Below, in pieces: positions 19,040 to 44,695 of a stretch of DNA of 63,705 bases. This stretch comes from Candidatus Shapirobacteria bacterium CG_4_10_14_0_8_um_filter_39_15 (GTDB taxonomy: Bacteria; Patescibacteriota; Microgenomatia; UM-FILTER-39-15), in the NCBI GenBank assembly GCA_002784465.1, contig PFLE01000008.1, positions 1 to 63,705 of the forward strand, given 5' to 3'. The first letter of the stretch is position 1; every line of letters begins with the position of its first letter. The position numbers and the translations under genes were made by a program. Below the pieces are notes generated by a model. The model saw only the letters and a program-made list of their open reading frames with translations, searched no databases and was not told the DNA's origin.

Positions 19040-19482
19040 TAAGCATGCAAGTGGAACGCCCGCGCAAATCTCGCAAGAGATTTGTTCGGGAGTCGCAGAC
19101 GGGTGAGTAATAGGTAGGAATCTACCTCGAAGCGGGGAATACCTATCCGAAAGGATAGCTAATACCCCATATGGTCCCGCACCATACGGTGCAGGAGCAA
19201 AGGATGTAACTGTCCGCTTTGAGATGAGCCTACTTCCTATCAGCTAGTTGGTGAGGTAATGGCTTACCAAGGCTTTGACGGGTAGGGGGCGTGAGAGCGC
19301 AATCCCCCACAAGGGCACTGAGACACGGGCCCTACTTCTACGGAAGGCAGCAACTGGGAATTTTGCACAATGGACGAAAGTCTGATGCAGCAACGCCGCG
19401 TGAAGGATGAAGGTTTTCGGATCGTAAACTTCTTTTGCCAAGGTTGAGAGACTTTGGCGAATAAGCACCCGCTAACTACGTG

Positions 19483-20337: not shown

Positions 20338-20353
20338 CCAGCAGCTGCGGTAA
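19736..20353 (+). CDS. LAGLIDADG homing endonuclease (double motif)
   Basis: LLGDGHL and WYMDDGTL motifs. The ORF runs 16 nt into the downstream 16S exon. Confidence 0.85.
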   Translation: MEYLLKQILIGSLLGDGHLTPLNKKGLSQLYLKYDDKTLSYLEWLHKMFIPIKTNEIKERSKGGYHQHYFTTLPSLELGYYRKLFYPLGKKSVPENISKLLTHPIALAIWYMDDGTLDFRKKYHRNASFATFCFSFKECEYLQKMLERNFSIRVGIHKTTMREKLYFRLYVRSESMDCFLCLIGKYIHPVFKYKVLIAKTHQQLR

Positions 20354-20609
20354 TACGTAGGGTGCAAGCGTTATCCGGATTTATTGGGCGTAAAGCGTTT
20401 CGTAGGTGGTTTAATAAGTCATATCTTAAAGACCAAGGCTTAACCTTGGAAATGGGTCTGATACTGTTAGACTAGAATTTTGTTGGGGATGCTGGAATTC
20501 CCGGTGGAGCAGTGAAATGCGTTGATCTCGGGAGGAACACCAATGGCGTAGGCAGGCATCTGGGCAATGATTGACACTGATGAACGAAAGTTAGGGGAGC
20601 GAAAGGGAT

Positions 20610-21417: not shown

Positions 21418-21504
21418 TAGAGACCCCTGTAGTCCTAACTGTAAACGATGCTCGCTAGATGGCCCCGTCTGACGGGGTTGTCGTAAGCTAACGCGTTAAG
21501 CGAG

Positions 21505-21537
<33 letters not shown>

Positions 21538-21680
21538 TAAAGGAATTGACGGGGAGGCGCACAACCAGGGGAGCGTGTGGTTTAATTCGAGACTAAACGA
21601 AGGACCTTACCTAGGTTTGACATGCTAGAAGTAGCTTCCGGAAACGGATAGTCACCCGTTAAGTCGGGGACTAGCACAGC

Positions 21681-21717
<37 letters not shown>

Positions 21718-21784
21718 CGGCTTTAGTGCCGGAACGAGCGCAACCCCTACTATCTGTTAAATATTCAGATAGGACAGCCCCGTC

Positions 21785-21914
21785 TCTTTTTCGCATCAGC
21801 TAACAGAATAAGATTTGAAATAAAGATTTATTTTGTTAGAAGATCGCGACGCTAGCCCGAATAGGGCTGGGCTATTCGCCCACGCGTCGCGGTATGAGAT
21901 TGGCGCGAAAAAGT
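21785..21914 (+). other. 130-nt expansion segment in the 16S (tip of the helix before GGAGGAAGG)
   Basis: Flanked by CCCCGTC / GACGGGG. Its ends are self-complementary (CTTTTTCGC / GCGAAAAAG). No intron core motifs. Confidence 0.7.
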
Positions 21915-22142
21915 GACGGGGAGGAAGGAGGGGACGACGTCAAGTCAGCACGGCGCTTATGTCTAGGGCAACACACACACTACAATGGATCGGACAACGA
22001 GTTGCGAGCGCGCAAGCGTAAGCTAATCTCTTAAACCGATCCTCAGTTGGGATTGCGGGCTGTAACTCGCCCGCATGAACCCGGACTTGGTAGTAATCGC
22101 GGGTCAGCAAACCGCGGTGAATACGTTCTCGCCTCTTGTACA

Positions 22143-23038
22143 AAATAAATGCGCTTGGCAGTTTAGAAAACTAAGTGGTGAAAATCCACTTTTATAGAGA
22201 AATCATACTTAGAAATTAGATTAAGGATATGATTTTTATATATCTGTCACAAATGTTGTGACAGCTATAGTTGCGGACAGTCTTGAGGGGTAACCCGAAG
22301 GATGAAGGGTCCTATATACAAAGAGCAGTCCTCTTTTCAAAAGGGCAATAACGATCTGATTATGTGTACAGCAGAGAAGTTATTTTAAAAACCCAGAGGA
22401 ATGTTTGAAAAAGTTTTTTAAATGACCCAAGGAGATCCTGTGTGCATCAGAACTATAATCGGCCACAGGAAGTCAGCTGAGTCCATAGTAAGTAAAACTT
22501 GACAGGTCTATAAATAGTATCTAAATTAGAGATAGACCCGAAGCTTTACCGAAGGGACGAACTATATGTTAAATCCTCATTATATTGTCGGATTTGTTGA
22601 TGGCGAAGGATGCTTTAGTGTGTCCATAAGCCGAAAACGATTTCGAATACCTGAGGTTAGACTCAAATTTGAAATTGAGCTTAAAGGGGATGACGAACCA
22701 ATTCTGAAAGAGATCTAAAAATTTCTAGGTTGCGGATCAATCTACCATTTGGAATATAAAAAATACAAATGGGGACCGCATGCGAAATTTATGGTTGGTT
22801 TACAGAAAGATCTTATTAATAAAATAATACCTTTCTTTAAAAAATATCCTCTTCAGGCAAAAAAGAGAAAACAATTTGAGTTTTTCTGTAAGGTCGAAAA
22901 CATGATTCTTAAAGGGGAACATAGAAATCTTGAAGGAATTGAGAAGATAAGATTAATGAGAGAAAAACAACATATAGACTCGCTGGATGCGCTAGACGCG
23001 CACGTCCAGTGGGGCGTGGAATAGTTCTTAACCATGAT
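22143..23038 (+). mobile_element. 16S intron 3, between TTGTACA and CACCGCCCGTC (about E. coli 1396/1397)
   Basis: Joining the flanks restores the universal TGTACACACCGCCCGTC. The intron class is uncertain (no terminal G). Confidence 0.65.
22566..23024 (+). pseudogene. LAGLIDADG homing endonuclease (single-motif type) with an in-frame TAA
   Basis: MLNPHYIVGFVDGEGCFSV...ILKEI, then a stop at 22716-22718, then KFLGCGSIYH... in the same frame. The ORF track shows only 22749..23024. Confidence 0.7.
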
Positions 23039-23127
23039 CACCGCCCGTCAAATGAGCAAAGTCGGGGGTGCCTGAAGCTCCTGCTTAGCAGGAATGAAGG
23101 TAAACTCGGCGATGAGCATTAAGTCGT

Positions 23128-23836
23128 AAACTTGTTGCGACCTGCAATCGTAAGAATGCAGGAAAATCTAACTGTATCGGTGAAGCCTAAATCCGCCAGC
23201 TGGCGGATACGGTAATACCGAGGGAAGCTTGTTTCGGTAAAACAGTTGAACAGTTAAACAGTAAGACAGTAATCAGTGTAACGGTAATATGTTAGACTTA
23301 GTTAATGGCAACTATTTGGAGTGTTAAGCAACTTAGGGTATATCAGCGGCCATTGAAACTTTTGCCGCAATTGTATGATCTTGCTTATTCACTTCCAGTG
23401 ATTCGCCAAAAATTAAGAAAACAGATCATTAATTGCGGGGAAGGAATAGCCCCGTTGATTGCGGAAGGATTTGCTAAAAGAAGAAATGAAGCGGAAGTAA
23501 AAAGATTCTTCGAAATGGCAATGGGAGAGAGTGATGAATTAGCTACTCACCTAGAGCAAGTCAAAATTCTGGCAAATCGGTTTAAGAGTGTTAGAGTTGA
23601 ATTGTGTCAAAAGTTAATTGAAGAATACACAATCGAATCAAAAGAACTCTATAACCTTATTAAAAATTGGAATAATCATCCAACAAAATGATTTACCGTT
23701 TTACTGACTACTGTTTTACTGCAATACTGTTTAACAGATTTACAGATTCATAGCCCCGTAGAGACTACACGTTGGCCCCAGCTCAGCTGGGTGAAGATAT
23801 AGTCCATGCCTCGATGAAAATCGAGGAACACCAATG
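23128..23836 (+). mobile_element. 16S intron 4, group I, at AAGTCGT|AACAAGG (about E. coli 1498/1499)
   Basis: The 5' exon ends in U and the intron ends in G. Core GTAGAGACTACACG ... GATATAGTCC. Confidence 0.8.
23305..23691 (+). CDS. four-helix-bundle protein (IVS-protein / Avd-like family)
   Basis: LRVYQRPLKL ... INCGEGIAPLIAEGFAKR ... GESDELATHLEQ pattern, inside 16S intron 4. Confidence 0.8.
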   Translation: MATIWSVKQLRVYQRPLKLLPQLYDLAYSLPVIRQKLRKQIINCGEGIAPLIAEGFAKRRNEAEVKRFFEMAMGESDELATHLEQVKILANRFKSVRVELCQKLIEEYTIESKELYNLIKNWNNHPTK

Positions 23837-24007
23837 AACAAGGTATCCGTTCTGGAAGGAGCGGATGGATCACCTCCTTTCTAAGGAGATGTTTCACGAA
23901 CCTGTACTATTATGGTATAGGGAAAGGTATACACCCAAGCTTTTTTGGTTTGCTTGTAAAAGTTAACCATCACCTTCCCTTCACATTTTGGATATCAAAC
24001 AAAAAAA

Positions 24008-24033
24008 ATCCTGGTATTTGCCAGGATTTTTTG
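24008..24033 (+). terminator. terminator-like hairpin between the 16S and the tRNA cluster
   Basis: A-run, ATCCTGG / CCAGGAT stem, T-run. Confidence 0.35.
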
Positions 24034-24202
24034 GTTGTGATAAAATTCTACGCAAGGGCTGCTGGTTCCCTAAAAACACTTCGGTGTTTTGAGGGTAAAC
24101 ATCGGCTTGCACTAAAAATTTGTTTCGACAAATTTTCAGTGCAGAACGCTTTCCTGATGACGGTTGAATTTATTAACCGATATATAAGTTGCGAATAAAA
24201 AG

Positions 24203-24411
24203 GGGTCGCTAGCTCAGTTGGTTAGAGCGCATTCCTGATAGCTAGCGCTTTGCGCTAGATATATCAGATGTAATTTATGGGCTACTAGTTCATCGGTAGA
24301 ACGCTTACCTGATAAGTAAGAAGTACATGGTTCGATTCCATGGTAGCCCACAAATAAATTACATCTGTTATAAGAATGAGGTCTCAGGTTCGAATCCTGA
24401 GCGACCCACCA
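24203..24411 (+). tRNA. tRNA-Ile(GAU) (A), canonical sequence with encoded CCA but split after position 37 by a 132-nt insert (24241-24372)
   Basis: The exons GGGTCGCTAGCTCAGTTGGTTAGAGCGCATTCCTGATA and AGAATGAGGTCTCAGGTTCGAATCCTGAGCGACCCACCA fold into a perfect cloverleaf. Confidence 0.75.
24279..24350 (+). tRNA. tRNA-Ile(GAU) (B), uninterrupted, innermost
   Basis: 72 nt: GGGCTAC TA GTTC ATCGGTA GAAC G CTTAC CTGATAA GTAAG AAGTA CATGG TTCGATT CCATG GTAGCCC A. Confidence 0.85.
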
Positions 24412-24495
24412 TAGAAATTCGCAACTTCTATAAGAAAGAAGTACCAGGTCCGACTCCTGGGCAGCCCACCCTGGTTTGTTTGGTATTTTTACAAG

Positions 24496-24846: not shown

Positions 24847-25176
24847 ATGAAACACAAATTGTTTTTTACCAAACCTCCTGAACTAATTACTCTTGAACCA
24901 AGAATTAAAAAGCTTTTGGAAAAATATCATTTGGATCAATATTATTCGGTTGAGGATTTGGAGTTAATGATTTATGAATGTTTACCAGAGAACGAATTTA
25001 ATGTTTTTGATCCGGTAATTGAGCATCTTGTTTTGGCAGAGGATAAGGCAGACTTTCTGATTTTTCTGAACAATGAACTTTGGAATGCGACTCCTTTAAA
25101 AATGTTAGGCGGTATATCACCAATACAAAGCATGAATTCTGATCGGTTAAAAGAAAAAAGGGAAGTGATGGATTAG
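24847..25176 (+). CDS. hypothetical protein
   Basis: 109-aa ORF. The C-terminal WNATPLKMLGGISP is reminiscent of DUF2384-type antitoxin C-termini, but this is weak. Confidence 0.5.
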   Translation: MKHKLFFTKPPELITLEPRIKKLLEKYHLDQYYSVEDLELMIYECLPENEFNVFDPVIEHLVLAEDKADFLIFLNNELWNATPLKMLGGISPIQSMNSDRLKEKREVMD

Positions 25177-25214: not shown

Positions 25215-25280
25215 TTAGTTACTTAAATCTCCTGCAACACCGCAAGGTCTTTGCAGGATTTTTTATGCTATAATTTAATT

Positions 25281-25811
25281 GTGAAGCGTTGCCTTATTCT
25301 AATTGACGGAAGTAATTTTTATTTCAAATTAAAAGATCTTCAACTCCAAAATCTTCTTGAGTTTGATTTTTCTGGATTTACAAAGTTTTTAGTTAGTAAA
25401 AATAAACTTATCAAAGCTACTTATTATGTTGGGGCAATGCGAACCGATGGAACTGAAAGAGCCCAAAGATTGTTTAACGATCAGCGCAAGCTTTTATCCC
25501 ATTTAACAAAACAGGGTTTAAAATATTCTCTTGGATATTTATTAAAATCAAAAAATAAATTTCACGAAAAAGGGGTTGATGTTAATATAGCGGTAGATAT
25601 TCTTGTGGCCGTTTATGAAAACCAATGCGATCATCTTATTTTAGTTTCGTCGGATACTGATCTTTTACCGGAAATCAAAAAAGCTAAAGAAAAAGGCAAA
25701 ACGATTGAATATATTGGTTTTTCCCATCAACCAAGTTTAGCCATGGTTGCTAATTGTACGGAATCAAAATTACTTAAAAAAGAAGAAATTACCCCATTTG
25801 TTAAAAAATAA
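25281..25811 (+). CDS. NYN-domain (LabA/DUF88-like) predicted RNase
   Basis: LILIDGSNFY ... GVDVNIAVDIL ... LVSSDTDLLP. The GTG start at 25281 is preferred over the TTG at 25251. Confidence 0.75.
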   Translation: MKRCLILIDGSNFYFKLKDLQLQNLLEFDFSGFTKFLVSKNKLIKATYYVGAMRTDGTERAQRLFNDQRKLLSHLTKQGLKYSLGYLLKSKNKFHEKGVDVNIAVDILVAVYENQCDHLILVSSDTDLLPEIKKAKEKGKTIEYIGFSHQPSLAMVANCTESKLLKKEEITPFVKK

Positions 25812-25964: not shown

Positions 25965-26528
25965 ATGGAAAACGAAGCTCCTGATAAATCGATTGAACAA
26001 GCTGAAAGAAGAAAAATAGGTTTATATAATAATGGTTATTCTATCGCTGCCCATGAAATCGGTCATGCATTAGTTGTTGACTCAATTTTTAAAGAACGAA
26101 GACATTATGAATTTAAGGTTGAGGTTATACCGGTAGTTAATTGGCGTAATCCAAAAGACCAAATGGGTTTTTATGGTGGAAACTCAAGAATAAGATTAAT
26201 AACCTTGTCGGATCAACTTCCAGTTAACGAAGAACAAGAAAAATTATTTGCGTCCTCAGGTGTTGCCGTCTGTAGGGTTATCGGAAGAAACGAAAATTTC
26301 CAACCACAAGCGCCTGGTAATGATGAAAAAGTTTTTACCCATAAAGGAAAATTTGATTCAGAAGAAGCAGAAAGATACGTAGCCTTGGCAACAAAAATAT
26401 TAGAACCAAATAAGGAGATAATTGACACTGCTGCTAAAAAGATTGCCAAGCAAATTTCCGAAACAACAAAACCTTTTATTCTTGACGAACAGAGGTTAAG
26501 AGAATTCTTAAGGCCAGAAATGGGATAA
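25965..26528 (+). CDS. hypothetical protein with an HExxH zinc-peptidase-like motif
   Basis: AAHEIGHALV motif, 187 aa. Confidence 0.5.
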   Translation: MENEAPDKSIEQAERRKIGLYNNGYSIAAHEIGHALVVDSIFKERRHYEFKVEVIPVVNWRNPKDQMGFYGGNSRIRLITLSDQLPVNEEQEKLFASSGVAVCRVIGRNENFQPQAPGNDEKVFTHKGKFDSEEAERYVALATKILEPNKEIIDTAAKKIAKQISETTKPFILDEQRLREFLRPEMG

Positions 26529-26743: not shown

Positions 26744-26955
26744 GGGCCAATGGCTCAGTTGGCTCGCACTGAAAAATTGCGAACAATTTTTTAGTGTAAA
26801 TGCCTCGTTTGTTTAGCCCGTAAGGGCTGTTAGCTTAGCTGGTAGAGCGTCGCGTTTGCAACGCGAAGGTCGCCAGTTCGAATCTGGCACAGTCCACCAG
26901 TGAGGCCCTTTACGGGCCATCGAGGAGGTTAGGAGTTCGAGTCTCCTTGGGTCCA
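26744..26955 (+). pseudogene. outer tRNA-Ala-like shell, interrupted in the D region and anticodon loop
   Basis: Cloverleaf parts:
- acceptor GGGCCAA / TGGGTCC with G3:U70
- TGGCTCAGTTGG D-arm start
- anticodon stem CCTCG / CGAGG with loop TTTG...CAT (TGC if joined)
- intact T arm AGGAG TTCGAGT CTCCT. Confidence 0.55.
26824..26899 (+). tRNA. tRNA-Ala(UGC), uninterrupted, CCA encoded
   Basis: GGGCTGT...ACAGTCC acceptor with G3:U70, anticodon loop TTTGCAA, T loop TTCGAAT. Confidence 0.9.
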
Positions 26956-27067: not shown

Positions 27068-27684
27068 GATTAATTTTTGCGGTTGACGATTATTTTTTAA
27101 AATAGAAATTAATCGTCAGCTGAAAAAAGCTGGATGGTACCTTAAAAAGTGAAGAGAAAATATATAAGTAGGCCCTCCGATGCAAATCGGAGGAAAAGGT
27201 CTTAAACAGCTTAGTTTTTATTAAAGCAAGTGGTGGATGCCTTGGTAACAAGAGCCGAAGAAGGACGCAGTCGGCAGCGATATTCGTCGGGGAGGAGTCT
27301 AACATCCTTTGATCCGGCGGTTTCCGAATAGAGTAATCTCCTCGTAAGAGGGACTTGCACCATACGGTGCGAGTAGGGAACTGGGCGAACCGAAACATCC
27401 AAGTAGCCCAAGGAAAAGAAAATAATAATGATTCCGTCAGTAGCGGAGAGCGAAAGCGGAACAGCCTAAACCCGAACAAATCTCGCAAGAGATTTGCGCG
27501 GGTGTTGTAGGGTCTCATTATGGGAGTATTAAGAATAGTCAAACGGTGTGGAATTGCCGACCATAGAGAGTGAAAGTCTCGTAGACGAAATTCAAGATAC
27601 CTCTAGAGATACCTAAGTAACTCGAAGCACATACTTTGAGCGAATCTGGGGCAACCATGCTCCAAGGCTAAATACTCTTGTTGT

Positions 27685-27726
<42 letters not shown>

Positions 27727-27785
27727 CCGGTGAGGGGAGTGAAATAGAACCTGAAACCATTTGCTAACAAACAGTAAGAGCATCT

Positions 27786-27918
27786 CGTTTCCACTCGATG
27801 CTTAAGTCAAAAGTAAAAAGTTAAAAATCAAAAGTACAAGTAAAAATTAAAAATATACAATTGAAATTTTGACTTTTGCATTTTGAATTTTGCATTTGAA
27901 CACCGAGTGGAGGCGAGG
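27786..27918 (+). other. IVS/expansion at the helix-25 site of the 23S
   Basis: An AT-rich palindrome made of AAAAGTCAAAAG words replaces the short helix between AGTAAGAGC and GTGATTACGTGCC. Confidence 0.65.
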
Positions 27919-28486
27919 TGTGATTACGTGCCTATTGAAGAATGAACCGGCGAGTTCTCAATTACTGCATTAGTTTAAGCCGCTAATTACGGCTCAAGCG
28001 TAGCGAAAGCAAGTCTGAATAGGGCGTAATAAGCAGTTGTTGGGAGACCCGAAACCTGGCGAGCTAACCATGAACAGGGTGAGCCCCGATGAAAGTCGGG
28101 GGGAAGCCCGAACTCGTTGTCGTTGCAATGACATGAGATGATTTGCGGTTAGGGGTAATATGCCTAACGAGCCAGGAGATAGCTGGTTCTCCCCGAAATA
28201 TATATAGGTATAGCGTCCGTTAAACTTTTCCGGAGGTAGAGCACTGAATGGGTGTGGTAACGCAAGTTATTATACTCAATCAAACTCCGAATGCCGGAAA
28301 AAGATTTACGGGCAGTCAGAACGGTGGGTCTAAGCTCATCGCTCTAAAGGGAAACAACCCAGATTTCCATCTAAGGTCTCTAAATTTCTGTTAAGTGTTA
28401 AAGGAAGTGTTTTTCCTCAGACACCCAGGAGGTTGGCTCAGAAGCAGCCATCCTTGAAAGAAAGCGTAACAGCTCACTGGACGACA

Positions 28487-28605
28487 GCTCTCCTTCGCTT
28501 TTTGCTCCGAAAAAGCTACGGGACGAGCACCCTCTCTAATTAACAAAGGAGAGCGAGTGCCCTTCCGAAGCTTCGAACGAAGTAAGAAGCGGAGGAGGGT
28601 GGAGA
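28487..28605 (+). other. IVS/expansion at the helix-45 site of the 23S
   Basis: An extra segment of about 120 nt after AGCTCACTGGACGA and before TGCGCCTAAAACG. Confidence 0.6.
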
Positions 28606-29487
28606 AATGCGCCTAAAACGTATCGAGGCTAAAACAGAATACCGAAGATGAAGAACTTGTGTAAAGCACAAGGAATTCAAAAGTCAAAAGTTTTATTCTG
28701 AAGGTTTATTAATTTTGAATTTCTCATGCTTTGCATGAGTTGGTAGGGGAGCGTTGATACTGCAGTGAAGCCGAGCTGTAAGGCAAGGTGGAGCGGTATC
28801 AAGTGAGTATGCCGGTATAAGTAGCGAGATCCCGGTGAGAAACCGGGACGCCGAATACCCGAGGTTTCTCCGACAATGCTAATCAGTCGGAGGTTAGTCG
28901 ACCCTTAGGTGAGTCCGAGCTTAGCTCGGAGTAGCCGATGGATAAACTGTTAATATTCAGTTACAGAGAGTGAATCGTTACCAACTGGGGATTGACAGGG
29001 ATGGATAGCCAAACCCGCCGCAAGGCGAGCTTAAATCACAAGGCAGTTTTTGTAGGAAAACCCGCAAAAACGTTTACACTGCAAAGTGTCTAACCGAATG
29101 ATGAATAAGAGTCTAAGCCGCAAGGCAAGGACAATTTGGTAATTTCAACCCTCAAGAAAAGATTCGCAGTGAGATTCATTTTTTATCGTACCGAAAACCG
29201 ACACAGGTGGGTTGGTAGAGTATACCAAGGCGGACGAGAGAAGGAAGTTCAAGGAACTCGGCAAAAAAGCTGGGCGTAAGTTATGCAAGATGCCCTACTC
29301 CGATTTATCGGAGTTCAACAAAAGATTTTCAAGCGACTGTTTAACTAAAACACAGGTCTCTGCAAACCCGCAAGGGTAAGTATAGGGGCTGAAGCCTGCC
29401 CAGTGCCGGAAGGTTATGGGGAGGAGTGAGTCGCCGTAAGGCGACAGGCTCTGAACTTAAGCCCCGGTGAACGGCAGCAGTAACTAT

Positions 29488-29968
29488 GAATCGAAAGGTG
29501 TTGTAGTTGTTAAACTTAGCTATATGCTGGAATAACTCGTGTATCCGACAGTACCCCGTTACCATACGGTACAGGGTGACAATCTGTTCGGTGGAGTCAA
29601 TCAGCAGGAAAGGCTTTGGTAAATTAAAATCAATGTCATTCCCACGTTTACCCTGTAAGGGAAAGTGGGAATCTATATCAAAAAAGGAGTAAAACAGTAA
29701 ATCAGATAATCAGGTTAAGTAAATCTGAGAACAGAATATCAGTAGTAAAAACTGATCCCTGTTTTCTAATCTCTTTTCCCGATACTCTGATCAACTGATA
29801 ATCTTAATTGTGTTATATAGATTCCGGCTCGTAGGCCGGAATGACAAAATAAAAATTATCAAAGAATCCTCAGAGACTATACGCTGAGACCGAGCTTAGC
29901 TCGGGATGATATAGTCCGACCTTCAGTGCGAACTGAAGAACCGTAAAATCGGTCTAGTAACAAAGGTG
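29488..29968 (+). mobile_element. 23S intron 1, ORF-less group I, at AACTAT|AAC in helix 69 (about E. coli 1917)
   Basis: The 5' exon ends in U and the intron ends in G. Core TCAGAGACTATACG ... GATATAGTCC. It carries a P1 and a P3 repeat internally. Confidence 0.8.
29689..29806. repeat. family P1 palindrome nested inside 23S intron 1
   Basis: AAAACAGTAAATCAGATAATCAGGTTAAGTAAATCTGAGAACAGAATATCAG ... CTGATCCCTGTTTTCTAATCTCTTTTCCCGATACTCTGATCAACTGAT. Confidence 0.7.
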
Positions 29969-30488
29969 AACTGTTCGATGGTAGCGAAGTCCCTCGCCAG
30001 GTAAGTTCTGGCCCGCATGAAAGGCTTCACGACTTGAAAACTGTCTCGAACTTCCACTCGGCGAAATTGAAATGGCTGTGAAGATGCGGCCTACGCATTC
30101 TTGGACAAAAAGACCCCGTGGAGCTTTACTATAGCTTGGTGTTGGAATGATGTTTGAAATTGTGCAGTGCAGGAGGGAGTCTCGACGCAAGTCGGACGCC
30201 AATGTAACACCTCTCTTTTTAAACCTCAAACCTTACCTGTGAGTTCTGGAAACGAACTCGGGGAACGCGCCAGGTGGGTAGTTTGACTGGGGCAGTCGCT
30301 TGCTAAAGAGTAACGCGAGTGCACAAAGGTTGGCTAGTCTCGAACGGAAATCGAGATGATAGTGTAAAGGCAAAAGCCAGCTTGACTGTGAGGCCGACGG
30401 GCCAAGCAGAGTCGAAAGACGGTCTTAGTGATCCTCCAACTCGTCGTGGGACGGTTGGGGCTTAACGGATAAAAGCTACCCCGGGGAT

Positions 30489-30782
30489 ACAACTGTGTCC
30501 CGTCTTGGTGAATATAAAAATACCAGGACTTGTATGCAACTAATAACGGTGGAACCCGCAACTGGAGAGTTTTAAGTAAAAGTCTTCTCTCGCGAGGCAG
30601 CCAAGGGTAATACCGTGGGAAGTCCGGCTTTGCCGGACCCCGTAACGACTGATTCCGAAAGGATGAGATATAAATTACTTCCCAAAAGGGAAAATCTACA
30701 ATTTATATCATACGTTGCCTCCCATAAAATTTTATATGGGATGAAGATATAGTCTGCGCTTACAGAAATGTAGGATTTTGTG
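30489..30782 (+). mobile_element. 23S intron 2, ORF-less group I, at GGGGAT|AACAGG (about E. coli 2449, peptidyl-transferase ring)
   Basis: The 5' exon ends in U and the intron ends in G. Elements ATAACGGTGGA, AATACCGTGGGAAGTC, CCCGTAACGACTG, GAAGATATAGTCT. Confidence 0.8.
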
Positions 30783-32278: not shown

Positions 32279-32725
32279 ACGAGAGGACCAGGAGAAGGGG
32301 ATCCCTGGTGTGCCAGTTGTCCGAGCTTAGCTCGGGCATCGCTGGGTAGCTACATCCTCTGGGGATAACTGCTGAAAGCATCTAAGCAGGAAGCTCCGCC
32401 CAAGATTAGGAATCCTTCCGAGCTTAGCTCGGTGAAGACCCCAGGTAGACTACCTGGTTGATTACGCCGCAAGGCGTAGTCGTTCGCGCGCAAGCGCGAA
32501 GATAGGCTGGGAGTGTATGCTTACCAGTACTAATTGGTCAAAAAGAATTAAGCTGTTTGAGATGAACCTGCGCGCGGAGCGCGTAATTTCTCTTCACTTT
32601 TCAAGGTGTCATCAGACACCGCAGACCCGCCAGAAATCGCTCTTCAAGTCGTGTTCGAATAGAACTGAAAAGACTTGAAGTAAGATTCGGCGGGTAAATA
32701 CTTTAACATTTTTGCCTTAAAGCCT

Positions 32726-32797
32726 TTCGGTCTTTGGAGCGGAGCGGAACTACTCTTTTCCCGTCTCGACTCGGTCGAGCCGAGGCGGGCCATTCCG
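32726..32797 (+). pseudogene. 5' fragment of a second, disrupted 5S-like copy
   Basis: A 46-nt stretch ACTCTTTTCCCGTCTCGACTCGGTCGAGCCGAGGCGGGCCATTCCG is identical to the intact 5S. The matching 3' piece CCGAACAAGATAGTAAAAC lies at 33060-33078. Confidence 0.55.
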
Positions 32798-32864
32798 TCG
32801 CGTAAAATCGCTGAAGCGATTAACGCGACTGGCACGTTGATTTGAGAACTCGTAAAATCTAGAA

Positions 32865-33017
32865 GTGTCTCGGTGACTAGAGCGGACTGGTACCACTCTT
32901 TTCCCGTCTCGACTCGGTCGAGCCGAGGCGGGCCATTCCGAACAAGATAGTTAAACGGTCTAGCGTCGACGATAGTAGAGCCTTGTGTTCTGCGAAAATA
33001 GATCGTTGCCGAGACAC
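32865..33017 (+). rRNA. 5S rRNA with a 30-nt hairpin inserted in loop C
   Basis: Helix I GTCTCGG / CCGAGAC, then CCATTCCGAACAAGATAGTTAAAC, GCGTCGACGATAGTAG and TGCGAAAATAGA. The extra hairpin lies at 32903-32932. Confidence 0.8.
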
Positions 33018-33188
33018 TTCTGTTCTCAAATCTTTACGTGGAACGTTTGACGTTCCGTGCCGAACAAGATAGTAAAACACTCTTATGTATCCTCTAATTT
33101 TCTCTAACATCCTCTAAAATCCCGATTGTTTTTTCTTTCAAAAAGTAGTATTATGTTTCCATTCACAAAAGAAAGGCGGTTATGATTA

Positions 33189-35889: not shown

Positions 35890-37299
35890 GTGCCAAAGTC
35901 TCACACTATTTTTGTCTGTCAGCAGTGTGGATACGAGAGTTCCCAGTGGATGGGAAAGTGTCCGAGCTGTGGAACCTGGAATAGTTTGGTGGAAACCCTC
36001 GTGGGAGGGGAAGCGAGAAGCGGGAAGCGCGAGGCGGGAAGCGGGACAGCCAAGCTCCAAAAACTTTCGGAAATTAAAGAAATCGGGAGTTCCAGAATTT
36101 CAACCGGAATGGAGGAATTTGACCGGGTGCTCGGAGGCGGAATTGTGGCTGGATCAGTGACTTTATTAGCAGGAGAACCGGGAATTGGGAAAAGCACCTT
36201 GTTATTGCAGGCAGCGGCGAACATTGCGCAAGAAGTATCACAGGTAGCACGAGTACCACAAGTACCACGAGCAAAAGATTCCCGTGATACTCGTGATACT
36301 TCAAATTCCCGTGGTACTTCTGTCGTATACGTTTCCGGTGAAGAATCTCCTTCTCAAATCAAAATCCGTGCCCAGAGATTGGGAATTAAATCAGAAAATT
36401 TGTTATTTTTAAATGAAACCGATGCTGATTCCATAATTGATACCATTCAAAATCAGAAGCGAGATCCCGCATCTACACTCGTTGTGGTTGATTCGATCCA
36501 GACCCTAACCACCGAAGATCTTACTGGTACTGCAGGCTCGGTCGGTCAAGTCAGAGAATGCACCAATCGTCTACTCAATATGGCCAAATCGCAAGATATT
36601 CCTTTGTTTTTGGTTGGTCATGTAACCAAGGAAGGGTCAATTGCCGGGCCAATGGTTTTATCCCACATGGTGGACACCGTTTTATTTTTTGAAGGAGAAA
36701 GATTTGCATCCTTAAGAATGCTCCGGTCAATGAAAAATCGTTTTGGCCCGACCGATGAAGTCGGGGTTTTTGAAATGATTGAAAAGGGGTTGAATGAAAT
36801 TGATAACCCATCGGAAATTTTTCTAGGAGAAAGAACAAAAGAAGTATCGGGGAGTGTGATTACTTGTCTTATGGAAGGAACAAGACCGCTTTTAGTGGAG
36901 ATTCAGGCTTTGGCATCCCAAACCCAGCTTCCAATCCCGCGCCGCGTTGGTCAGGGGATAGATAATAACCGCCTTCAGCTGTTAGTGGCCGTCTTGTCGC
37001 GTCGTATCGGTTTGCCCACCGGCGGGTTTGATTTATTCGTTAATGTGGCCGGCGGAATTAAAATCAGCGAACCGGGAGCTGATTTAGCTATTTGTTTGGC
37101 GTTAGCATCGGCGATTATGGATAAACCATTAAGTCAAAAACTTTGCGCCATCGGCGAAATCGGTTTGTTAGGAGAAATCAGACGGGTAGGGGGATTGGAA
37201 AAAAGAATTAAAGAAAGCAAAAGGTTGGGATTTACTAAAGTTGTCAGCGCCAATGATTCTTCAAGTCTTCGGGAAACGGTTAGGGAATTGTTAAAATAA
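35890..37299 (+). CDS. radA: DNA repair protein RadA/Sms
   Basis: CxxC...CPSC zinc finger, GEPGIGKSTLLLQ, KNRFG, and a Lon-like C-terminal domain. Two in-frame repeat insertions. Confidence 0.92.
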   Translation: MPKSHTIFVCQQCGYESSQWMGKCPSCGTWNSLVETLVGGEARSGKREAGSGTAKLQKLSEIKEIGSSRISTGMEEFDRVLGGGIVAGSVTLLAGEPGIGKSTLLLQAAANIAQEVSQVARVPQVPRAKDSRDTRDTSNSRGTSVVYVSGEESPSQIKIRAQRLGIKSENLLFLNETDADSIIDTIQNQKRDPASTLVVVDSIQTLTTEDLTGTAGSVGQVRECTNRLLNMAKSQDIPLFLVGHVTKEGSIAGPMVLSHMVDTVLFFEGERFASLRMLRSMKNRFGPTDEVGVFEMIEKGLNEIDNPSEIFLGERTKEVSGSVITCLMEGTRPLLVEIQALASQTQLPIPRRVGQGIDNNRLQLLVAVLSRRIGLPTGGFDLFVNVAGGIKISEPGADLAICLALASAIMDKPLSQKLCAIGEIGLLGEIRRVGGLEKRIKESKRLGFTKVVSANDSSSLRETVRELLK

Positions 37300-37345
37300 T
37301 TTCTTCTGTCATTCCCGCATAAGCGGGAATCTATATAAATAAGGT

Positions 37346-37464
37346 AAAGAATATCAGTTGATCAGATCATCAGGGTAAGAAATCAGAGATCAGAAACCAG
37401 TAATATTTACTGATATACCGGTCTCTATTCTCTTAACCCGATCAGCTGATCTACTGATTTACTT
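37346..37464. repeat. family P1 palindrome
   Basis: ATATCAGTTGATCAGATCATCAGGGTAAGAAATCAGAGATCAG ... CTGATATACCGGTCTCTATTCTCTTAACCCGATCAGCTGATCTACTGAT. Confidence 0.7.
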
Positions 37465-37917
37465 TTCCCCGAGTTATCAACAATTCCCCAAACGAGTTAA
37501 TTTTAATCGGAATTGGCTTCATTTACCTGGAGTATCTAATTATAAGATATAGGTTTTTTTCAGTGACTTTTATTATAGGTTTGACATACTTGACAGGTTG
37601 TGGTATATTGGAAACATCAATGAGTAAGCGTTTTTTATCCAACTTTTTCAAACGAAGATTAAGCCTTAAGGTTTCCGGAACTAGGGCCAGTTCAGCGTGG
37701 GGGAAAGAACAAATAAAGAAAATTGGAAGTTTAGGTCAATCGCTCATTGTCATGCAGGTTGGTTGAAGAATTACAAAAGAGCATCGCTAGCGCTACTCTC
37801 TTTTAGATCAGGGTACGCATAGTAATGCTCTTTAAACGGTTCCGTTTGGACAGAGAACTAGAACCATTTTGACATTAACATTAAAAAAAATAGTTGTCAA
37901 GACCCGTTGATAATAAT

Positions 37918-38036
37918 AAGAATATCAGTAAATCAGAATAACTGGGTAAGAGATCCGAGAACAGAAATCAGTTAATATTACCGAGATTCCGTTCTCTGTT
38001 TTACTTAACCTGATTTTCTGATCTACAGATTTACTA
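37918..38036. repeat. family P1 palindrome
   Basis: AATATCAGTAAATCAGAATAACTGGGTAAGAGATCCGAGAACAG ... CGTTCTCTGTTTTACTTAACCTGATTTTCTGATCTACAGATTTACT. Confidence 0.7.
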
Positions 38037-38420
38037 TTGTGTTTCTCTTTAAGTGAGGAGTGGTATGCTCGCACTAAAAAATCGTCGACACGATTTTTCA
38101 GTGTAAAGGCAGGTTTAGCCCGTAAATCGCGAATTATAACTTCGGCTTTAACGGGGAGGGTGGTGTGTAGGGCAGGCGCACTACCTTCCACATTGAAGCA
38201 GAGTGCGATTTTACGGGCCGTGTTGCCTCTCACCTAGAGACAAACAAAGTCAGGGCTTGACCCCAGTAGAACACTTACTTGCTCCCAAATACTACGTGTT
38301 TGCGTCGCAAGAGCGTGTCTACGGGGCTGCGCAAAGAAGTCGGGACTTGACAACATAGGTTAACTCTTGTTAAATAAGGTTAGTTAGTTTTCCTTCGTTT
38401 CCATGATTCTTAATTTTCCT
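38037..38420 (+). ncRNA. ORF-free structured region upstream of rho (leader or unidentified ncRNA)
   Basis: It contains the same hairpin-TAAA module and the TTTAGCCCGTAA...TTACGGGCC clamp found in the tRNA-Ala nest. I found no RNase P or tmRNA signature motifs. Confidence 0.35.
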
Positions 38421-38429
38421 TTTATTTAA

Positions 38430-39656
38430 ATGGTCGTCAAAGCAAAAAATACAGATACTCCTACGGTGGAAGAAATTACCGGCAATCCCGTTCCCGCGGG
38501 TTTTAATGGTGTGGTGGACAACCGGATTATTCCGGATGCCGATTTACCGACCGAATATGTTGAAGGCATTTTAAGCATTGCCGATGAGGGTCATGGCTAT
38601 TTAAGACCCAAATTTATTCCCGGTTTTAATGATGTTTATATTTCTTCTTCCCAAATCCGCCGTTTTGGTTTGCGGGTGGGTGATTTAGTGGGGGGACAGG
38701 CAAGACAACCGAAAGACAATGAAAGATATTTTGGTTTATTAAAAGTCGAAAAAGTTAACGGCGAGCCGATTGATTCGGAATTGATAACCAAAAGACCGTA
38801 TTTTGACGATCTTCTGCCGATTTTTCCTCAACCGCAAATAAAACTGGAGACCGAGAAAGATGTCTTAACGACCAGAATGATGGATTTAATATCACCAATT
38901 GGGAATGGTCAAAGAGGGTTGATTGTTTCACCGCCAAAAGCCGGGAAAACCTGGCTTTTAAAAGATATCGCCGCCGCGGTTTCCAAAAATTATCCCAAAA
39001 TGCATTTAATGGCAATTTTGATTGGGGAAAGGCCGGAAGAAGTGACCGATTTGGGCCGTTTTGCCAAAGGCGAAGTGGTGGCTTCCAATTTTGACGAAGC
39101 GCCGGAGAATCAGACCAGAACTGCCAATATCGCTTTGGAAAGGGCCAAAAGACTGGTGGAAATGGGGAAAGACGTGTTTATTATTTTGGATTCGATTACC
39201 CGCTTGGCCCGGGCTTACAATTTGGCGATGCCTACCTCTGGCCGAACTTTAACCGGCGGTTTTGATCCGGCGGCGTTATTTCCGGCCAAGCATTTTTTTG
39301 GCGCCGGAAGAAAAATTGAGAACGCGGGAAGCTTGACAATTATCGGTACTTGTTTAATTGATACCGGTTCAAGAATGGATGATTTGGTTTATGAAGAATT
39401 TAAAGGAACCGGCAATATGGAACTTCATTTAGACCGCCGGATGGCCGAACGCCGGATCTTTCCGGCCATTGATATCCAAAGATCGGGAACAAGGCAGGAA
39501 GAGCTCTTGTATGACCCGAAAATCTATCCCAGAATCGTCACCATCAGACGGGCGATTGACGCGGCCGATGCCGAAAATAGAACGGAAGATTTCATTAATA
39601 GTTTAAAAAAGAGCGAAACAAATGAAGAATTTTTAGCGGGTTTAGGAAAAGGGTGA
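38430..39656 (+). CDS. rho: transcription termination factor Rho
   Basis: Rho RNA-binding domain, Walker A PPKAGKT, and typical C-terminal RAIDAADA-type tail. Confidence 0.92.
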   Translation: MVVKAKNTDTPTVEEITGNPVPAGFNGVVDNRIIPDADLPTEYVEGILSIADEGHGYLRPKFIPGFNDVYISSSQIRRFGLRVGDLVGGQARQPKDNERYFGLLKVEKVNGEPIDSELITKRPYFDDLLPIFPQPQIKLETEKDVLTTRMMDLISPIGNGQRGLIVSPPKAGKTWLLKDIAAAVSKNYPKMHLMAILIGERPEEVTDLGRFAKGEVVASNFDEAPENQTRTANIALERAKRLVEMGKDVFIILDSITRLARAYNLAMPTSGRTLTGGFDPAALFPAKHFFGAGRKIENAGSLTIIGTCLIDTGSRMDDLVYEEFKGTGNMELHLDRRMAERRIFPAIDIQRSGTRQEELLYDPKIYPRIVTIRRAIDAADAENRTEDFINSLKKSETNEEFLAGLGKG

Positions 39657-39681: not shown

Positions 39682-40362
39682 CTAATGTCCCTTAAACTTA
39701 TCGGCAATTCTGGCTTGTTCCACTTGGTAATACTTTTGGTCCTCCGCCAACTTTTTCTCCAAAGATTGGACCAAAACTCTTAAGAGATAGTCTGTTTTAT
39801 TAATAAGTTCTATAAAAATCTCGTAAGTTAGGTTTTCTGCCTTAATCTGAGTTAGAGGAGGGTAGAGGATGGTTAAAGGACGATAGAGGAATTTACCATT
39901 CTCTAAATTTCCTTTAACCTCCTTTAAGGCCGTGTTTAGATCTTTTAGATTGATCCCAATTCCTGCTAAACTTGATTCTGGCTTACTTGGTAAAAATCCA
40001 TCCTCCGCCAGTTCTCGAACGTCTCCTTTGATTTCTTCCAGGCTTCCCGGAGAAAATCCTACAAACTCGATGTATTCCGAGGTGGTGCTTCTCTTGAAAC
40101 CTTCTTCTTGATTTCTGACATTAGATCTACCGGCATCATCTAATTGCGCTTTTCTTCGATACTCTGATTTTGGTAACGAGATCGTATAAAGCCTTATAAA
40201 ATGTCTTAGTAAGACAGAGTTTGACCAGGAAGTTAGATATCTATATCCTTCCGGATCTTTCCAAACTCTTGAACTTTGAACCGGTTTTTTAGGAGTATTT
40301 AGTTCTCTCATCGTTTTTTCCACTAGTTCCTGAATTATTTCCTGTTGAGTTTTGTCTGGCAT
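39682..40362 (-). CDS. four-helix-bundle family protein with an N-terminal extension
   Basis: QLDDAGRSNVRNQEEGFKRSTTSEYIEFVGFSPGSLEEI fits the Q..A.RS...NI.EG..R ... GS..E pattern. Flanked by CCTCTAA-word repeats. Confidence 0.6.
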   Translation of the reverse strand: MPDKTQQEIIQELVEKTMRELNTPKKPVQSSRVWKDPEGYRYLTSWSNSVLLRHFIRLYTISLPKSEYRRKAQLDDAGRSNVRNQEEGFKRSTTSEYIEFVGFSPGSLEEIKGDVRELAEDGFLPSKPESSLAGIGINLKDLNTALKEVKGNLENGKFLYRPLTILYPPLTQIKAENLTYEIFIELINKTDYLLRVLVQSLEKKLAEDQKYYQVEQARIADKFKGH

Positions 40363-41162: not shown

Positions 41163-41290
41163 ACAGTAAATCAGTAAAAATCAGAAAATCAGGTTAAGAT
41201 AATCAGAGAACAGAATATCTGTAACAAAATTACTGATTTTACTGATCTCTGTTTTCTTTTCCCGATATAACCGATATTCTGATTTACTTC
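41163..41290. repeat. family P1 palindrome
   Basis: ACAGTAAATCAGTAAAAATCAGAAAATCAGGTTAAGATAATCAGAGAACAG ... CTGATCTCTGTTTTCTTTTCCCGATATAACCGATATTCTGATTTAC. Confidence 0.7.
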
Positions 41291-43918: not shown

Positions 43919-43979
43919 TACACCGGTAATACGTCGCAATGGCATTGCGAAATAGGGAGTTCGATTCTCCCCGGGTCCA
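43909..43979 (+). tRNA. tRNA-Ala(GGC)
   Basis: GGGCCCG / CGGGTCC acceptor with G3:U70, anticodon loop ATGGCAT, T loop TTCGATT. Confidence 0.8.
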
Positions 43980-44208
43980 CTTGAAATTTTCTGATGAAAA
44001 TTTTAAGTGCAAGCACTTCTTTTTGCATTTGACTTAAAAGGTTGATATAATATTTCTTAGACCCAAGGAAATTACGGTGGTAGGTACCATTCGATACCTG
44101 CCTACCGTGTGCCGACTGGTACGCGGTGTTCACCATGACTCTGGTTAACCCAGGTGTTTTGGAAGAAACGAAAACCTGGGGAAATCAGATTGGAGGTGAA
44201 TATATAAA

Positions 44209-44574: not shown

Positions 44575-44695
44575 AGTAGAATATCAGTTGATCAGTAAAT
44601 CGGGGAAAGATGACTTGAGAACAGAATATCTGTAAGAGGGACTGATTTCGGATCCCTGTTTTACTTTACCCGATATTCTGATTTACTGATTTACT
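44575..44695. repeat. family P1 palindrome
   Basis: AGAATATCAGTTGATCAGTAAATCGGGGAAAGATGACTTGAGAACAG ... CCCTGTTTTACTTTACCCGATATTCTGATTTACTGATTTAC. Confidence 0.7.

Follow-up and report, generated by a model that had tools for sequence, protein, structure and literature searches.

Several described systems bear on the locus considered here. The repetitive extragenic palindromic (REP) elements and bacterial interspersed mosaic elements (BIME) that go with RAYT transposases, and the elements derived from IS200/IS605, are short imperfect palindromes with a conserved flanking tetranucleotide. Integrative elements with a tRNA gene as their target bring along a substitute for the 3' half of that tRNA. 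RNA genes can also be housed in tRNA introns, one example being the box C/D RNA in the archaeal pre-tRNA-Trp intron, among the archaeal tRNA and rRNA introns. Twintrons and the mobile palindromic GC clusters of organelle genomes provide examples of like-into-like nesting and of small palindromes that colonise rRNA and conserved genes. Further, tRNA scaffolds for recombinant RNA have reportedly been engineered by Ponchon and Dardel (2007). The present work concerns a stretch of 63,705 nucleotides (nt) from a genome of Candidatus Shapirobacteria (Microgenomates, Candidate Phyla Radiation or CPR), hereafter the window, and an element upstream of its rho gene (the pre-rho nest), in which a small palindromic hairpin and a two-armed helix (the clamp) accompany a structured RNA (the cargo) in much the same way as they accompany the tRNA-Ala gene in the rRNA operon of this window. 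The architecture of these nests, viz. a complete RNA gene that is bounded by palindromes and inserted in its own homolog, is combined in none of the REP/RAYT, IS200/IS605, integrative-element, intron-RNA or twintron systems, and it suggests that essential RNA genes can be overwritten in a manner not described so far. The explanation that we favour, with a probability of about 0.6, is that of a Russian-doll RNA gene made by palindromes resembling REP elements or miniature inverted-repeat transposable elements (MITE), which insert in the loops of essential RNA genes so that a replacement copy is needed for survival. A full-text search found no published account of nested tRNA, 5S or small-RNA genes in CPR/Patescibacteria; the coverage of this search was incomplete, and its result is an absence of evidence only.

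The segment 38067-38125, reading GCTCG-[CACTAAAAAATCGTCGACACGATTTTTCAGTG]-TAAAGGCAGGTTTAGCCCGTAA, aligns with 26762-26823 next to the tRNA-Ala gene with 51 identical bases of 59/62, as had been noted in an earlier, sequence-only reading of this DNA. The match holds statistically, with a blastn E value of 5e-8 within the window and, in a proper alignment, a global score of 35.5 as against -5.3 +/- 3.4 in 2000 shuffles (about 12 standard deviations above). Common to the two segments are GCTCG, the CACT...AGTG palindrome, TAAA and GTTTAGCCCGTAA, and both GTTTAGCCCGTAA and TTTACGGGCC (the latter at 38210-38219 and 26909-26918) occur exactly at the two sites alike. The 3' partner TTACGGGCC is also present at both; its position at the tRNA-Ala nest (26910-26918) had been given correctly, but that at the pre-rho site had been set 10 nt too far downstream, at 38221-38229 instead of 38211-38219. 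As an observation on the sequence this is confirmed, and the clamp and hairpin that surround a tRNA at one of the sites do recur around a structured RNA that is not a tRNA at the other. However, the pairing AATCGC/GCGATT, which had been taken for the ends of the cargo, is instead part of the clamp, the arms of which are GCCCGTAAATCGC and GCGATTTTACGGGC (Table 1).

At the pre-rho site an intact copy of a hairpin RNA lies within the clamp, and the clamp lies within the disrupted remains of a second, outer copy of the same gene. This anatomy is clarified by comparison with the rho loci of other Microgenomates (the relatives, labelled L0xx). When the 214-nt pre-rho element was compared by blastn with 80 such loci, the cargo core alone was matched, on the rho strand; the element gave no match to phage genomes. 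In L081, L082, L098 and L099 (rho identities of 83%, 78%, 77% and 74%) the hairpin RNA is a single copy at the same place, between a conserved small open reading frame (ORF) and rho, with no hairpin and no clamp. It is nested in L092-L095 (rho 74%), where the outer copy is intact and the clamp is the same as in the window, in L083/L084 (=L096; rho 79%), where the clamp is a related one, and in L097 (rho 79%), where the nest is degenerate. From 5' to 3', the L092 locus consists of the outer 5' stem GAGGTGGGGGGTGGAATG, a palindrome followed by TAAA, the loop TAGGGCAGG, TTTAGCCCGTAAAC..., a complete inner copy, ...GTTTTACGGGC, and C plus the outer 3' stem GTTCCACCTTCCTC, and the inner copies of L092-L095 are bounded by the same TTTAGCCCGTAAA / TTTTACGGGCCGT as in the window. 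The window nest and the L094 nest can be aligned from end to end. The outer 5' strand of the window (38040-38067) aligns with GAGGTGGGGGGTGGAATG, its part 38053-38067 being the outer 5' stem; 38068-38107 corresponds to palindrome plus TAAA, which in L094 stand at the same position, viz. the 5' stem/loop junction of the outer copy; the GGCAGG of 38108-38113 is the loop minus three bases, where L094 reads TAAA-TAGGGCAGG-TTTAGCCCGTAA; and 38219-38233 is the outer 3' stem.

Further copies of the clamp were found in a relative at 74% rho identity, which has the identical core around both tRNA-Ala(UGC) and the hairpin RNA; the core is thus common to the tRNA-Ala nest of the window (26812-26823), the hairpin-RNA nest of L092-L095 and the tRNA-Ala nest of L093. 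The extension of the clamp covaries between the window and L094 (ATCGC/GCGAT as against ACTTTT/AAAAGT), and the pairing probability is 0.99-1.0 over the GCCCGT core, dropping to 0.74-0.25 over three A-U pairs. Searched for together as an exact pattern across metagenome contigs, the two clamp arms matched a single locus (L092), and this search was not a census. L083/L084 carries an independent hairpin-RNA nest with the related clamp TCCCGTTAAAATTTTGC, in which the insertion lies four bases earlier in the loop. All three hairpin-RNA nests have the same branched fold with the inner loop at its tip (z = -8.5, -10.7 and -9.9 for the window, L094 and L083/L096), and the fold check of the pre-rho region gave -93.2 kcal/mol for the minimum free energy (MFE) structure.

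The outer copies range from intact to decayed. Spliced in silico and compared with a hidden Markov model (HMM) of the family, they score 38.0 bits in L094 and 42.6 bits in L083, and 8.3 bits in the window, where the inner copy scores 49.5 bits. The window outer copy is degenerate, and its score still beats 1000/1000 shuffles and 1999/2000 random spliced controls. Its decayed 3' stem CGTGTTGCCTCTCAC can pair with 38053-38067 at 14/15 positions, 6 of them G.U, and constraining the fold to this ancestral outer pairing gives -85.8 kcal/mol versus the MFE. One earlier suggestion was rejected on comparison with L094. The helix just outside the clamp had been regarded as kept by compensatory change, CCTCG/CGAGG at the tRNA-Ala nest being replaced by AGGCA/TGCCT at the pre-rho site, but the two do not correspond by homology. 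An outer tRNA-Ala has CCTCG/CGAGG as its anticodon stem, whereas in AGGCA/TGCCT the outer apical-loop remnant (GGCAGG) is paired to the decayed outer 3' strand, AGGCA at 38107-38111 pairing with TGCCT at 38224-38228 with p about 1, where A38107 belongs to the TAAA tail as its final base. No equivalent of this helix was found in L094, compared by alignment and fold. The two helices are analogous in position, not homologous. In sequence type the window and L094 have inner copies that group with the single copies of L081 and L098 (84-92%; 90-92% for the window inner copy), and the outer copies of L083 and L094 group with the single copy of L082 (88-95%). In L083 the inner and outer copies are 72% identical to each other, as against 95% between its outer copy and the L082 single copy.

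The view that the element results from chance or faulty assembly, or codes for a small protein, is effectively refuted. ORFs of 66 and 102 codons (38037-38237 on the + strand and 37925-38233 on the - strand) do overlap it, but the substitutions seen in the relatives compensate base pairing and are not codon-like, the protein-coding reading being rejected on this ground. Against this view there are also the strong similarity statistics and the orthologous nests in other species. Further, because six assemblies of the species are identical or nearly so (five independent ones 100% over 37300-38429, the sixth 99.7%), the pre-rho nest is not an assembly artefact, and among these six assemblies it shows no strain-level polymorphism.

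The cargo had been proposed to be a structured RNA, and it belongs to a conserved, covarying family. It is a Patescibacteria hairpin RNA with a stem of ~26 bp (24-26 bp) and an apical loop, GGGCAGG, that is invariant in 27 aligned sequences. Changes on both sides are seen at 24/26 of the stem pairs, and 94% of the alignment cells are paired, versus 64.6% in shuffles (0/500 reach the observed value) and 39-52% with slid partners. A covariance model of the family (R1) detects one rho-strand copy per rho locus in 47/88 sources, with every best match on the rho strand, and its sole match in the window is 38134-38213 (74 bits, E 1.4e-14). In its core, the inner copy shares 92% identity with the lone copy present in L081, the closest relative. 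The RNA lies between rho and a conserved small ORF of 48 codons with a GAGCAT hairpin; two other conserved hairpins likewise stand 5' of it, and in the single-copy relatives a conserved TTGTCAAG box precedes it by ~30 nt. The promoter-like box of the window at 37894-37923 is the counterpart of this TTGTCAAG box, and some copies of the RNA have a T run directly 3'. No relevant match to the Rfam 15 families (signal recognition particle (SRP) RNA, 6S, tmRNA, RNase P, ribozymes, riboswitches) was found in 37250-38480 at E <= 10, over 11 related loci at the gathering score, or over the single-copy relatives at E <= 1. This small RNA is genuine and conserved and has had no annotation so far; it is widespread in Patescibacteria, strongly covarying, rho-linked and without an Rfam family. 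Two other identities were tried for the cargo and rejected. It is not a cryptic tRNA, as neither ARAGORN nor RF00005 makes a call in 38037-38250 and the cargo is an unbranched hairpin; and the partial likeness of AGGGCAGG to the SRP motif AGGUCAGG does not indicate a link with SRP RNA, as the covarying stem reaches the loop and neither a GNRA loop nor an AGCA motif is present. As a separate observation, the GGGCAGG loop is complementary to CCTGCCC in 23S rRNA (29395-29401); however, because this 7-mer is not rare (9 times in the window vs 4.9 expected), the 23S rRNA as a target is pure speculation.

The tRNA-Ala nest shows the same arrangement. Its outer parts are tRNA-Ala-like, with the acceptor GGGCCAA, the D-arm start GCTCAGTTGG, CCTCG/CGAGG, the T arm AGGAG-TTCGAGT-CTCCT and TGGGTCC-A, and the insert separates G35 from C36 in the anticodon loop of the outer copy; removing 26812-26917 restores, by direct reading, the 7-nt loop TTTGCAT with anticodon UGC. 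The D-stem 3' strand of the outer copy is missing, and the segment 26744-26766 (GGGCCAA..TTGGCTC) can be read alternatively as a truncated tRNA minihelix plus trailer hairpin, as against a D-loop insertion. The tRNA-Ala(UGC) of L093 has the same clamp with one mismatch; there, the outer 5' half is intact and without a D-loop palindrome, and the outer 3' half is missing. The tRNA-Ile(GAU) nest of the window (24057-24470) has three layers and two other clamps, CAGATGTAATTTAT/ATAAATTACATCTG and AAGTTGCGAAT/ATTCGCAACTT, and its middle copy is of a sequence type unlike the innermost and outermost copies. The 5S rRNA nest (32720-33080) consists of an outer 5' part (32720-32797) that is 86% identical to the inner gene, the palindrome TCGCGTAAAATCGCtgaaGCGATTAACGCGA (TCGCGTAAAATCGC..GCGATTAACGCGA), an 11-bp clamp TTGATTTGAGAAC/GTTCTCAAATC, the inner gene at 32869-33014 and then ~20 nt of decaying outer 3' sequence. 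Across these reduced genomes, the single-copy genes for tRNA-Ile, tRNA-Ala, 5S rRNA and the hairpin RNA are repeatedly nested in dead copies of themselves, joined by one palindrome family.

Among the relatives, tRNA-Ala(GGC) of L093 (12735-12990) and L082 (4790-5010) is interrupted at G35^C36 by a palindrome plus TAAA, and the same holds for tRNA-Ala(CGC) of L023 (4085-4300), in which the outer 3' half is degenerate and the 5' junction only was read. The tRNA-Ala of L097 (230-520) has three layers, with a middle copy lacking the anticodon loop and a D-loop palindrome CCCCGTAAATCCGCC..GGCGGTAACGGGG+TAAA, and a nested tRNA-Ala is also found in L096 (12480-12700). Empty palindromes of the CCCGTAAAT family lie in outer-layer D- or T-loops of the L093, L096 and L097 nests. 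The tRNA-Ala(UGC) genes of L096, L098 and L099 are not nested. Annotation of CPR tRNA and rRNA genes will miss or mis-call the outer layers of such nests, in which ARAGORN called the innermost genes only. Based on these results, the suggestion that the clamp is a portable scaffold is correct in that it carries different RNAs, but it is not a stand-alone module, as it always lies within a disrupted outer copy of the gene type of its own cargo.

Table 1. Positions of the nest components and of the neighbouring genes in the window.
Feature	Position	Strand	Remarks
Promoter-like box TTGTCA-18-AAGAAT	37894-37923	+	9/12 hexamer matches; putative function
Pre-rho nest, outer 5' strand	38040-38067	+	TGTTTCTCTTTAAGTGAG, closing helix; GAGGAGTGGTATG, 5' stem remnant of disrupted outer copy
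Pre-rho nest, empty palindromic element	38068-38107	+	"hairpin module" of the sequence-only reading; CTCG prefix, imperfect palindrome 38072-38103, TAAA tail
Pre-rho nest, outer apical-loop remnant GGCAGG	38108-38113	+	family loop TAGGGCAGG; TAG lost
Pre-rho nest, TTTA and clamp 5' arm GCCCGTAAATCGC	38114-38130	+	arm at 38118-38130; identical core in other nests
Pre-rho nest, inner intact hairpin RNA copy	38140-38204	+	"cargo" of the sequence-only reading; loop 38170-38176
Pre-rho nest, clamp 3' arm GCGATTTTACGGGC	38205-38218	+	one bulged T relative to 5' arm
Pre-rho nest, outer 3' strand	38219-38246	+	CGTGTTGCCTCTCAC, decayed 3' stem of outer copy; CTAGAGACAAACA, closing helix
tRNA-Ala nest, outer 5' part	26744-26762	+	tRNA-Ala-like
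tRNA-Ala nest, empty palindrome	26763-26800	+	probably in outer D loop
tRNA-Ala nest, outer anticodon stem and TTTG	26803-26811	+	
tRNA-Ala nest, TTTA and GCCCGTAA	26812-26823	+	
Inner tRNA-Ala(UGC)	26824-26899	+	
tRNA-Ala nest, TTTACGGGC	26909-26917	+	
tRNA-Ala nest, outer CAT, CGAGG, T arm and acceptor strand	26918-26955	+	
Outermost tRNA-Ile	24057 (GGGCTGC..) to ~24470 (..GCAGCCCACC)		D-loop palindromes 24068-24095 + TAAA and 24110-24141; T loop broken
Middle tRNA-Ile	from 24203		perfect copy, interrupted at 37/38
Innermost tRNA-Ile	24279-24351		sole copy called by ARAGORN
16S rRNA pieces	18999-22192		
tRNA-Ile gene	24279		in rRNA operon
tRNA-Ala gene	26824		in rRNA operon
23S rRNA	27210-30529		
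5S rRNA	32869		
S1 protein gene			first in order 3' of rRNA operon
radA	35890-37299		follows S1 protein gene
Gap			1.1 kb, between radA and rho
rho	38430-39656		

The hairpin and the clamp had been treated as two different modules; however, to judge from their sequences, they look like the empty and the loaded forms of one palindrome family with the core CCGTAAAT..ATTTACGG. The comparison DNA for this family consisted of the 64-kb window and ~770 kb of relatives, and copy number was judged on these alone. The pattern CACTNAAAAW..WTTTTNAGTG occurs 3 times in the window (24110, 26767 and 38072) vs 0.01 expected. Copies ~79-81% identical to the palindrome of 38068-38107 are found at 26763-26800 and 24106-24141, and a copy in reverse orientation (43978-44016) forms the trailer of tRNA-Ala(GGC), so that the window holds four CACT-type copies, with the flanks GCTYG / CAAGC. 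These CACT hairpins are a local variant of the palindrome family. The empty palindromes of L097, L092, L093 and L096 share their core with the loaded clamp GCCCGTAAATCGC, that of L092 being CCCCACAAATCGC..GCGATTGCGGGG+TAAA, and the tRNA-Ala trailers of L021 and L023, CCGTAAATTTC..GAAATTTACGG-TG-CAAGCAC, have the same core. Every clamp contains either a single bulged A/T or one mismatch.

The palindromes appear to resemble those of the REP/RAYT and IS200/IS605 systems in having a flanking tetranucleotide (here CTYG on one side and TAAA on the other) and a single bulged or mismatched base, in occurring in several copies per genome and in both orientations without target-site duplication, and in often standing right after genes (here as tRNA-Ala trailers). 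The related CCGTAAAT palindromes of the relatives are enriched near RNA genes, 11/41 core occurrences being within 150 nt of one vs 1.8 expected (6-fold, p = 1.4e-6). Unlike the elements of these systems, the palindromes of this family lie within structural-RNA genes at loop positions and some have a whole RNA gene in their loop; no Y1 (HUH) transposase was seen among the 9 window ORFs scanned against Pfam. Inverted arms are present in the nests as in a MITE, and no target-site duplication accompanies them. In comparison with integron attC sites, the palindrome arms of the nests bracket the cargo on both sides and, by inspection, form no array; an integrase was not searched for.

Integrative elements likewise insert in tRNA genes, often in the anticodon loop, and are tolerated since functional tRNA sequence is supplied. 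However, the nest inserts are ~100-130 nt long, encode no integrase and bring a complete gene, and both halves of the old gene surround the insert, whereas an integrative element is large and has the 3' half in duplicate at its far end; moreover, 5S rRNA and a non-tRNA hairpin RNA are hit too. The RNAs of archaeal tRNA introns are similar in that a structured RNA bounded by a helix stands in the anticodon-loop region of a tRNA gene. The nests differ from these in lacking a bulge-helix-bulge, in that the embedded RNA is a copy of its host gene, and in that the organism is bacterial. In the engineered tRNA scaffold, the nearest likeness is the tRNA-Ala nest, in which a tRNA-like body (acceptor and T arms) carries, through an extended helix, a foreign structured RNA in place of its anticodon loop, a likeness which underlies the suggestion of a portable scaffold; the pre-rho shell, unlike such a scaffold, has no tRNA features and derives from the hairpin RNA itself. 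The nests also differ from twintrons, as they have no self-splicing core and what is nested in them is not an intron but a functional copy of the gene.

The comparison with introns raises the question of whether the inserts are spliced. If they were introns, removed by proteins or by self-splicing with ligation of the outer halves, then the outer and inner RNAs would both be functional. It is true that a perfect loop results when the insert is taken out, either a 7-nt anticodon loop (TTTGCAT; CTGATAA) or TAGGGCAGGC, and that splicing in silico yields an intact middle tRNA-Ile and intact outer copies in L094 and L083. However, the older outer copies are clearly degenerate, in contrast to the intact exons of bulge-helix-bulge introns, and, due to this decay of the host exons, splicing back of the hosts appears not to be selected. 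No 4-bp central helix with two 3-nt bulges is present at the nest junctions, which on direct reading have 4-8 unpaired nt on the 5' side vs 1-3 on the 3' side. At Rfam thresholds neither nest matches a group I, group II or other ribozyme family, and the inserts, at ~105 nt with cargo, compare with the >200 nt expected of a group I/II intron. Further, the empty palindromes are located in D- and T-loops, where splicing is not expected. Because the outer copies decay and carry no intron signature, splicing that restores the outer genes is very improbable.

The favoured explanation, that of palindromes inserting in the loops of essential RNA genes, accounts for the pre-rho nest in the following manner. 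The resident state would have been one copy of the hairpin RNA with its own upstream promoter-like box, and in this lineage two palindromes would have entered the resident copy, one at each edge of its apical loop. That of the 5' edge, CTCG-palindrome-TAAA, would be small and empty. That of the 3' edge, TTTA-GCCCGTAAATCGC ... GCGATTTTACGGGC, would have entered precisely at the junction of ..CAGG with C.., loaded with a second complete gene copy in its loop. The inner copy would be the present functional gene, transcribed from the old promoter as the tip of a long branched hairpin, and the outer copy would have decayed to a shell. The tRNA-Ala nest would have been built in the same way by the same palindrome family, and a hairpin and a clamp would occur at both sites because one family built the two nests. 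In general terms, imperfect palindromes with the core CCGTAAAT..ATTTACGG would enter exposed loops of structured-RNA genes on the 3' side of a G, and a gene lying between two palindromes could be mobilised along with both proximal arms, which then form the clamp. As the targets are essential single-copy RNA genes, we infer that the survivors would be those insertions whose cargo replaces the destroyed gene, which would result in same-in-same nests, and empty palindromes would accumulate solely in dead outer copies. The empty palindromes that are observed are located in dead layers or after 3' ends. The observed insertion points are G35^C36 in tRNA-Ala, 37^38 in tRNA-Ile and the apical loop in the hairpin RNA, and removal of the insert restores the loop exactly. 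Insertion at the DNA level is favoured because young outer copies are intact and old ones decayed, the insertions are exact, the site recurs, and the inner and outer copies can be of different types. What the data show is the anatomy, the homologous nature of the parts, a conserved and covarying cargo, recurrence in further genes and genomes, and decaying outer copies; mobility of the DNA, cargo capture and selective survival belong to the proposed mechanism.

Nested duplication in situ, without a dedicated mobile element, is the alternative on which these last points bear most directly. A gene could be copied into its own loop by template switching or fold-back repair, and the clamp could then be spread by gene conversion. 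This would be in keeping with the fact that a cargo never differs from its host in gene type, as seen with four gene types in the window, and with the apparent homogenisation of the window hairpins, which are of the CACT type at three nests whereas the orthologous L094 hairpin differs. However, the inner and outer copies are often of different types, as in the middle tRNA-Ile and in L083, where the inner copy is less similar to its own outer copy than that outer copy is to the L082 gene; the insertions are exact to the nucleotide; and G35^C36 recurs in three tRNA-Ala isoacceptors. In view of these results, duplication in situ is quite unlikely to be the source of the nests.

There are also a number of observations which weigh against insertion by mobile palindromes. 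TAAA is not distinctive as a tail, since it is not enriched over all hairpins of these AT-rich sequences (10/558 scored tails), and it is kept here solely as a feature observed in this palindrome family. The flanks (..CAGG|..|CGT.. and ..TTTG|..|CAT..) show no direct repeat and hence no target-site duplication. Among the 9 window ORFs compared with Pfam, no transposase, recombinase or nuclease is tied to the palindromes. A filled-versus-empty polymorphism within the species was not seen in the six assemblies, and the nests of the window and L092, being orthologous, document inheritance and not recent movement. Same-in-same nesting could equally result from duplication in situ. Lastly, the 9-bp clamp core is identical between genomes whose non-coding DNA is otherwise diverged, and its extension covaries, which fits a role at the RNA level too, and the retention of 14/15 outer stem pairs in the window by means of six G.U pairs hints at RNA-level selection on the shell.

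The last two of these observations are those expected if the clamp and hairpin constitute a portable scaffold at the RNA level, i.e. a processing or stabilising module that displays different structured RNAs in a precursor and is kept for this function, for instance in fold insulation or as a defined site for a double-strand-specific RNase. The identity of the clamp core in two genomes, at two loci in each, despite diverged flanks would agree with this, as would the branched fold shared by the three hairpin-RNA nests (z -8.5 to -10.7) and an ORF for an NYN-domain nuclease in the rRNA spacer between the tRNA nests. However, the same RNA and the tRNAs occur without a clamp in most relatives, the shell is demonstrably a dead gene copy and not a designed scaffold, and the clamp sequence is wholly different in the window tRNA-Ile, the L097 tRNA-Ala and the window 5S nests. 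Moreover, no G.U pair is found in the ~110 bp of clamp read in ten nests, whereas 14% of the cells in hairpin-RNA stems are G.U, and this points to DNA-level palindromes rather than to a scaffold selected as RNA. An RNA-level scaffold is therefore considered unlikely; if the clamps do act in RNA processing instead, they would represent a new precursor architecture. The NYN-domain ORF in question (25251-25811, + strand; PF01936, E 1.4e-20) stands in the 16S-23S spacer, with the tRNA-Ile nest on one side and the tRNA-Ala nest on the other, and its product is a candidate for an enzyme that processes the RNA of the nests or cuts their DNA; the ORFs beside it (24847-25176 and 25965-26528) have no Pfam match.

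More tentatively, it is possible that Microgenomates harbour self-compensating mobile cassettes, as yet undescribed as a class, in which palindromes with a complete gene for a tRNA, 5S rRNA or the hairpin RNA in their loop enter the functional loop of the resident homolog at an exact nucleotide, kill the old copy and install a new and sometimes foreign one. Repeated rounds of this would give dolls of up to three layers and would provide a route for the horizontal replacement of essential RNA genes in bacteria with single rRNA operons. Were they mobile, they would follow a new strategy for a selfish element, that of targeting an essential gene while bringing a spare, and would lead to turnover and lateral replacement of core translation RNAs.

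The surroundings of the pre-rho nest have some further features. The gap before rho had been described as ORF-free; however, it contains the 48-codon ORF MSKRFLSNFFKRRL...WGKEQIKKIGSLGQSLIVMQVG (37620-37766), which is kept in L081, L082, L083, L093, L097, L098 and L099, belongs to no Pfam family and is preceded by a strong promoter-like site, TTGACA-17-TATATT with TG (37581-37609; 11/12 hexamer matches). Between this small ORF and the hairpin RNA there are two conserved hairpins that are not in Rfam, at 37771-37830 (AAGAGCATYRCTAYCG...CGAGTAGCAATGCTCTT) and 37843-37872 (GGTTYY..GTTTGGACAGRRAAC..AACC), followed by the inverted boxes TTGACA...TGTCAA. A MITE-like repeat family of ~117 nt, with the ends AGTAAATCAG...CTGATTTACT, is present at 37347-37463, 37918-38035, 41178-41288, 44589-44695 and 29699-29784; one copy lies between the promoter-like box and the pre-rho nest, where L081 has none, and one is in the 23S region. 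The sequence AGTCAGGGCTTGACC (38249-38262) is repeated ~90 nt downstream as AGTCGGGACTTGACA (38340-38355), and because L081 has a single TAGGGTCTTGACA, the -35 region of its rho promoter, the rho promoter region of the window has apparently undergone a duplication or insertion.

The rRNA operon of the window has many other insertions. In the stretches 19520-21322, 22193-24056 and 27800-27900, the 16S gene is split by a large insertion with the ORFs 19736-20353 and 20833-21195, and AT-rich insertions are present in the 23S gene; the direct-repeat families D2, D4, D5, D8 and D10 recur in the rRNA insertions of the window. Just 3' of rho, an ORF on the - strand (39682-40362), a counterpart of which is found in L096, shows a weak match to PF05635, the 23S rRNA intervening-sequence protein, with an E value of 1.3e-7 that is just under the family cut-off.

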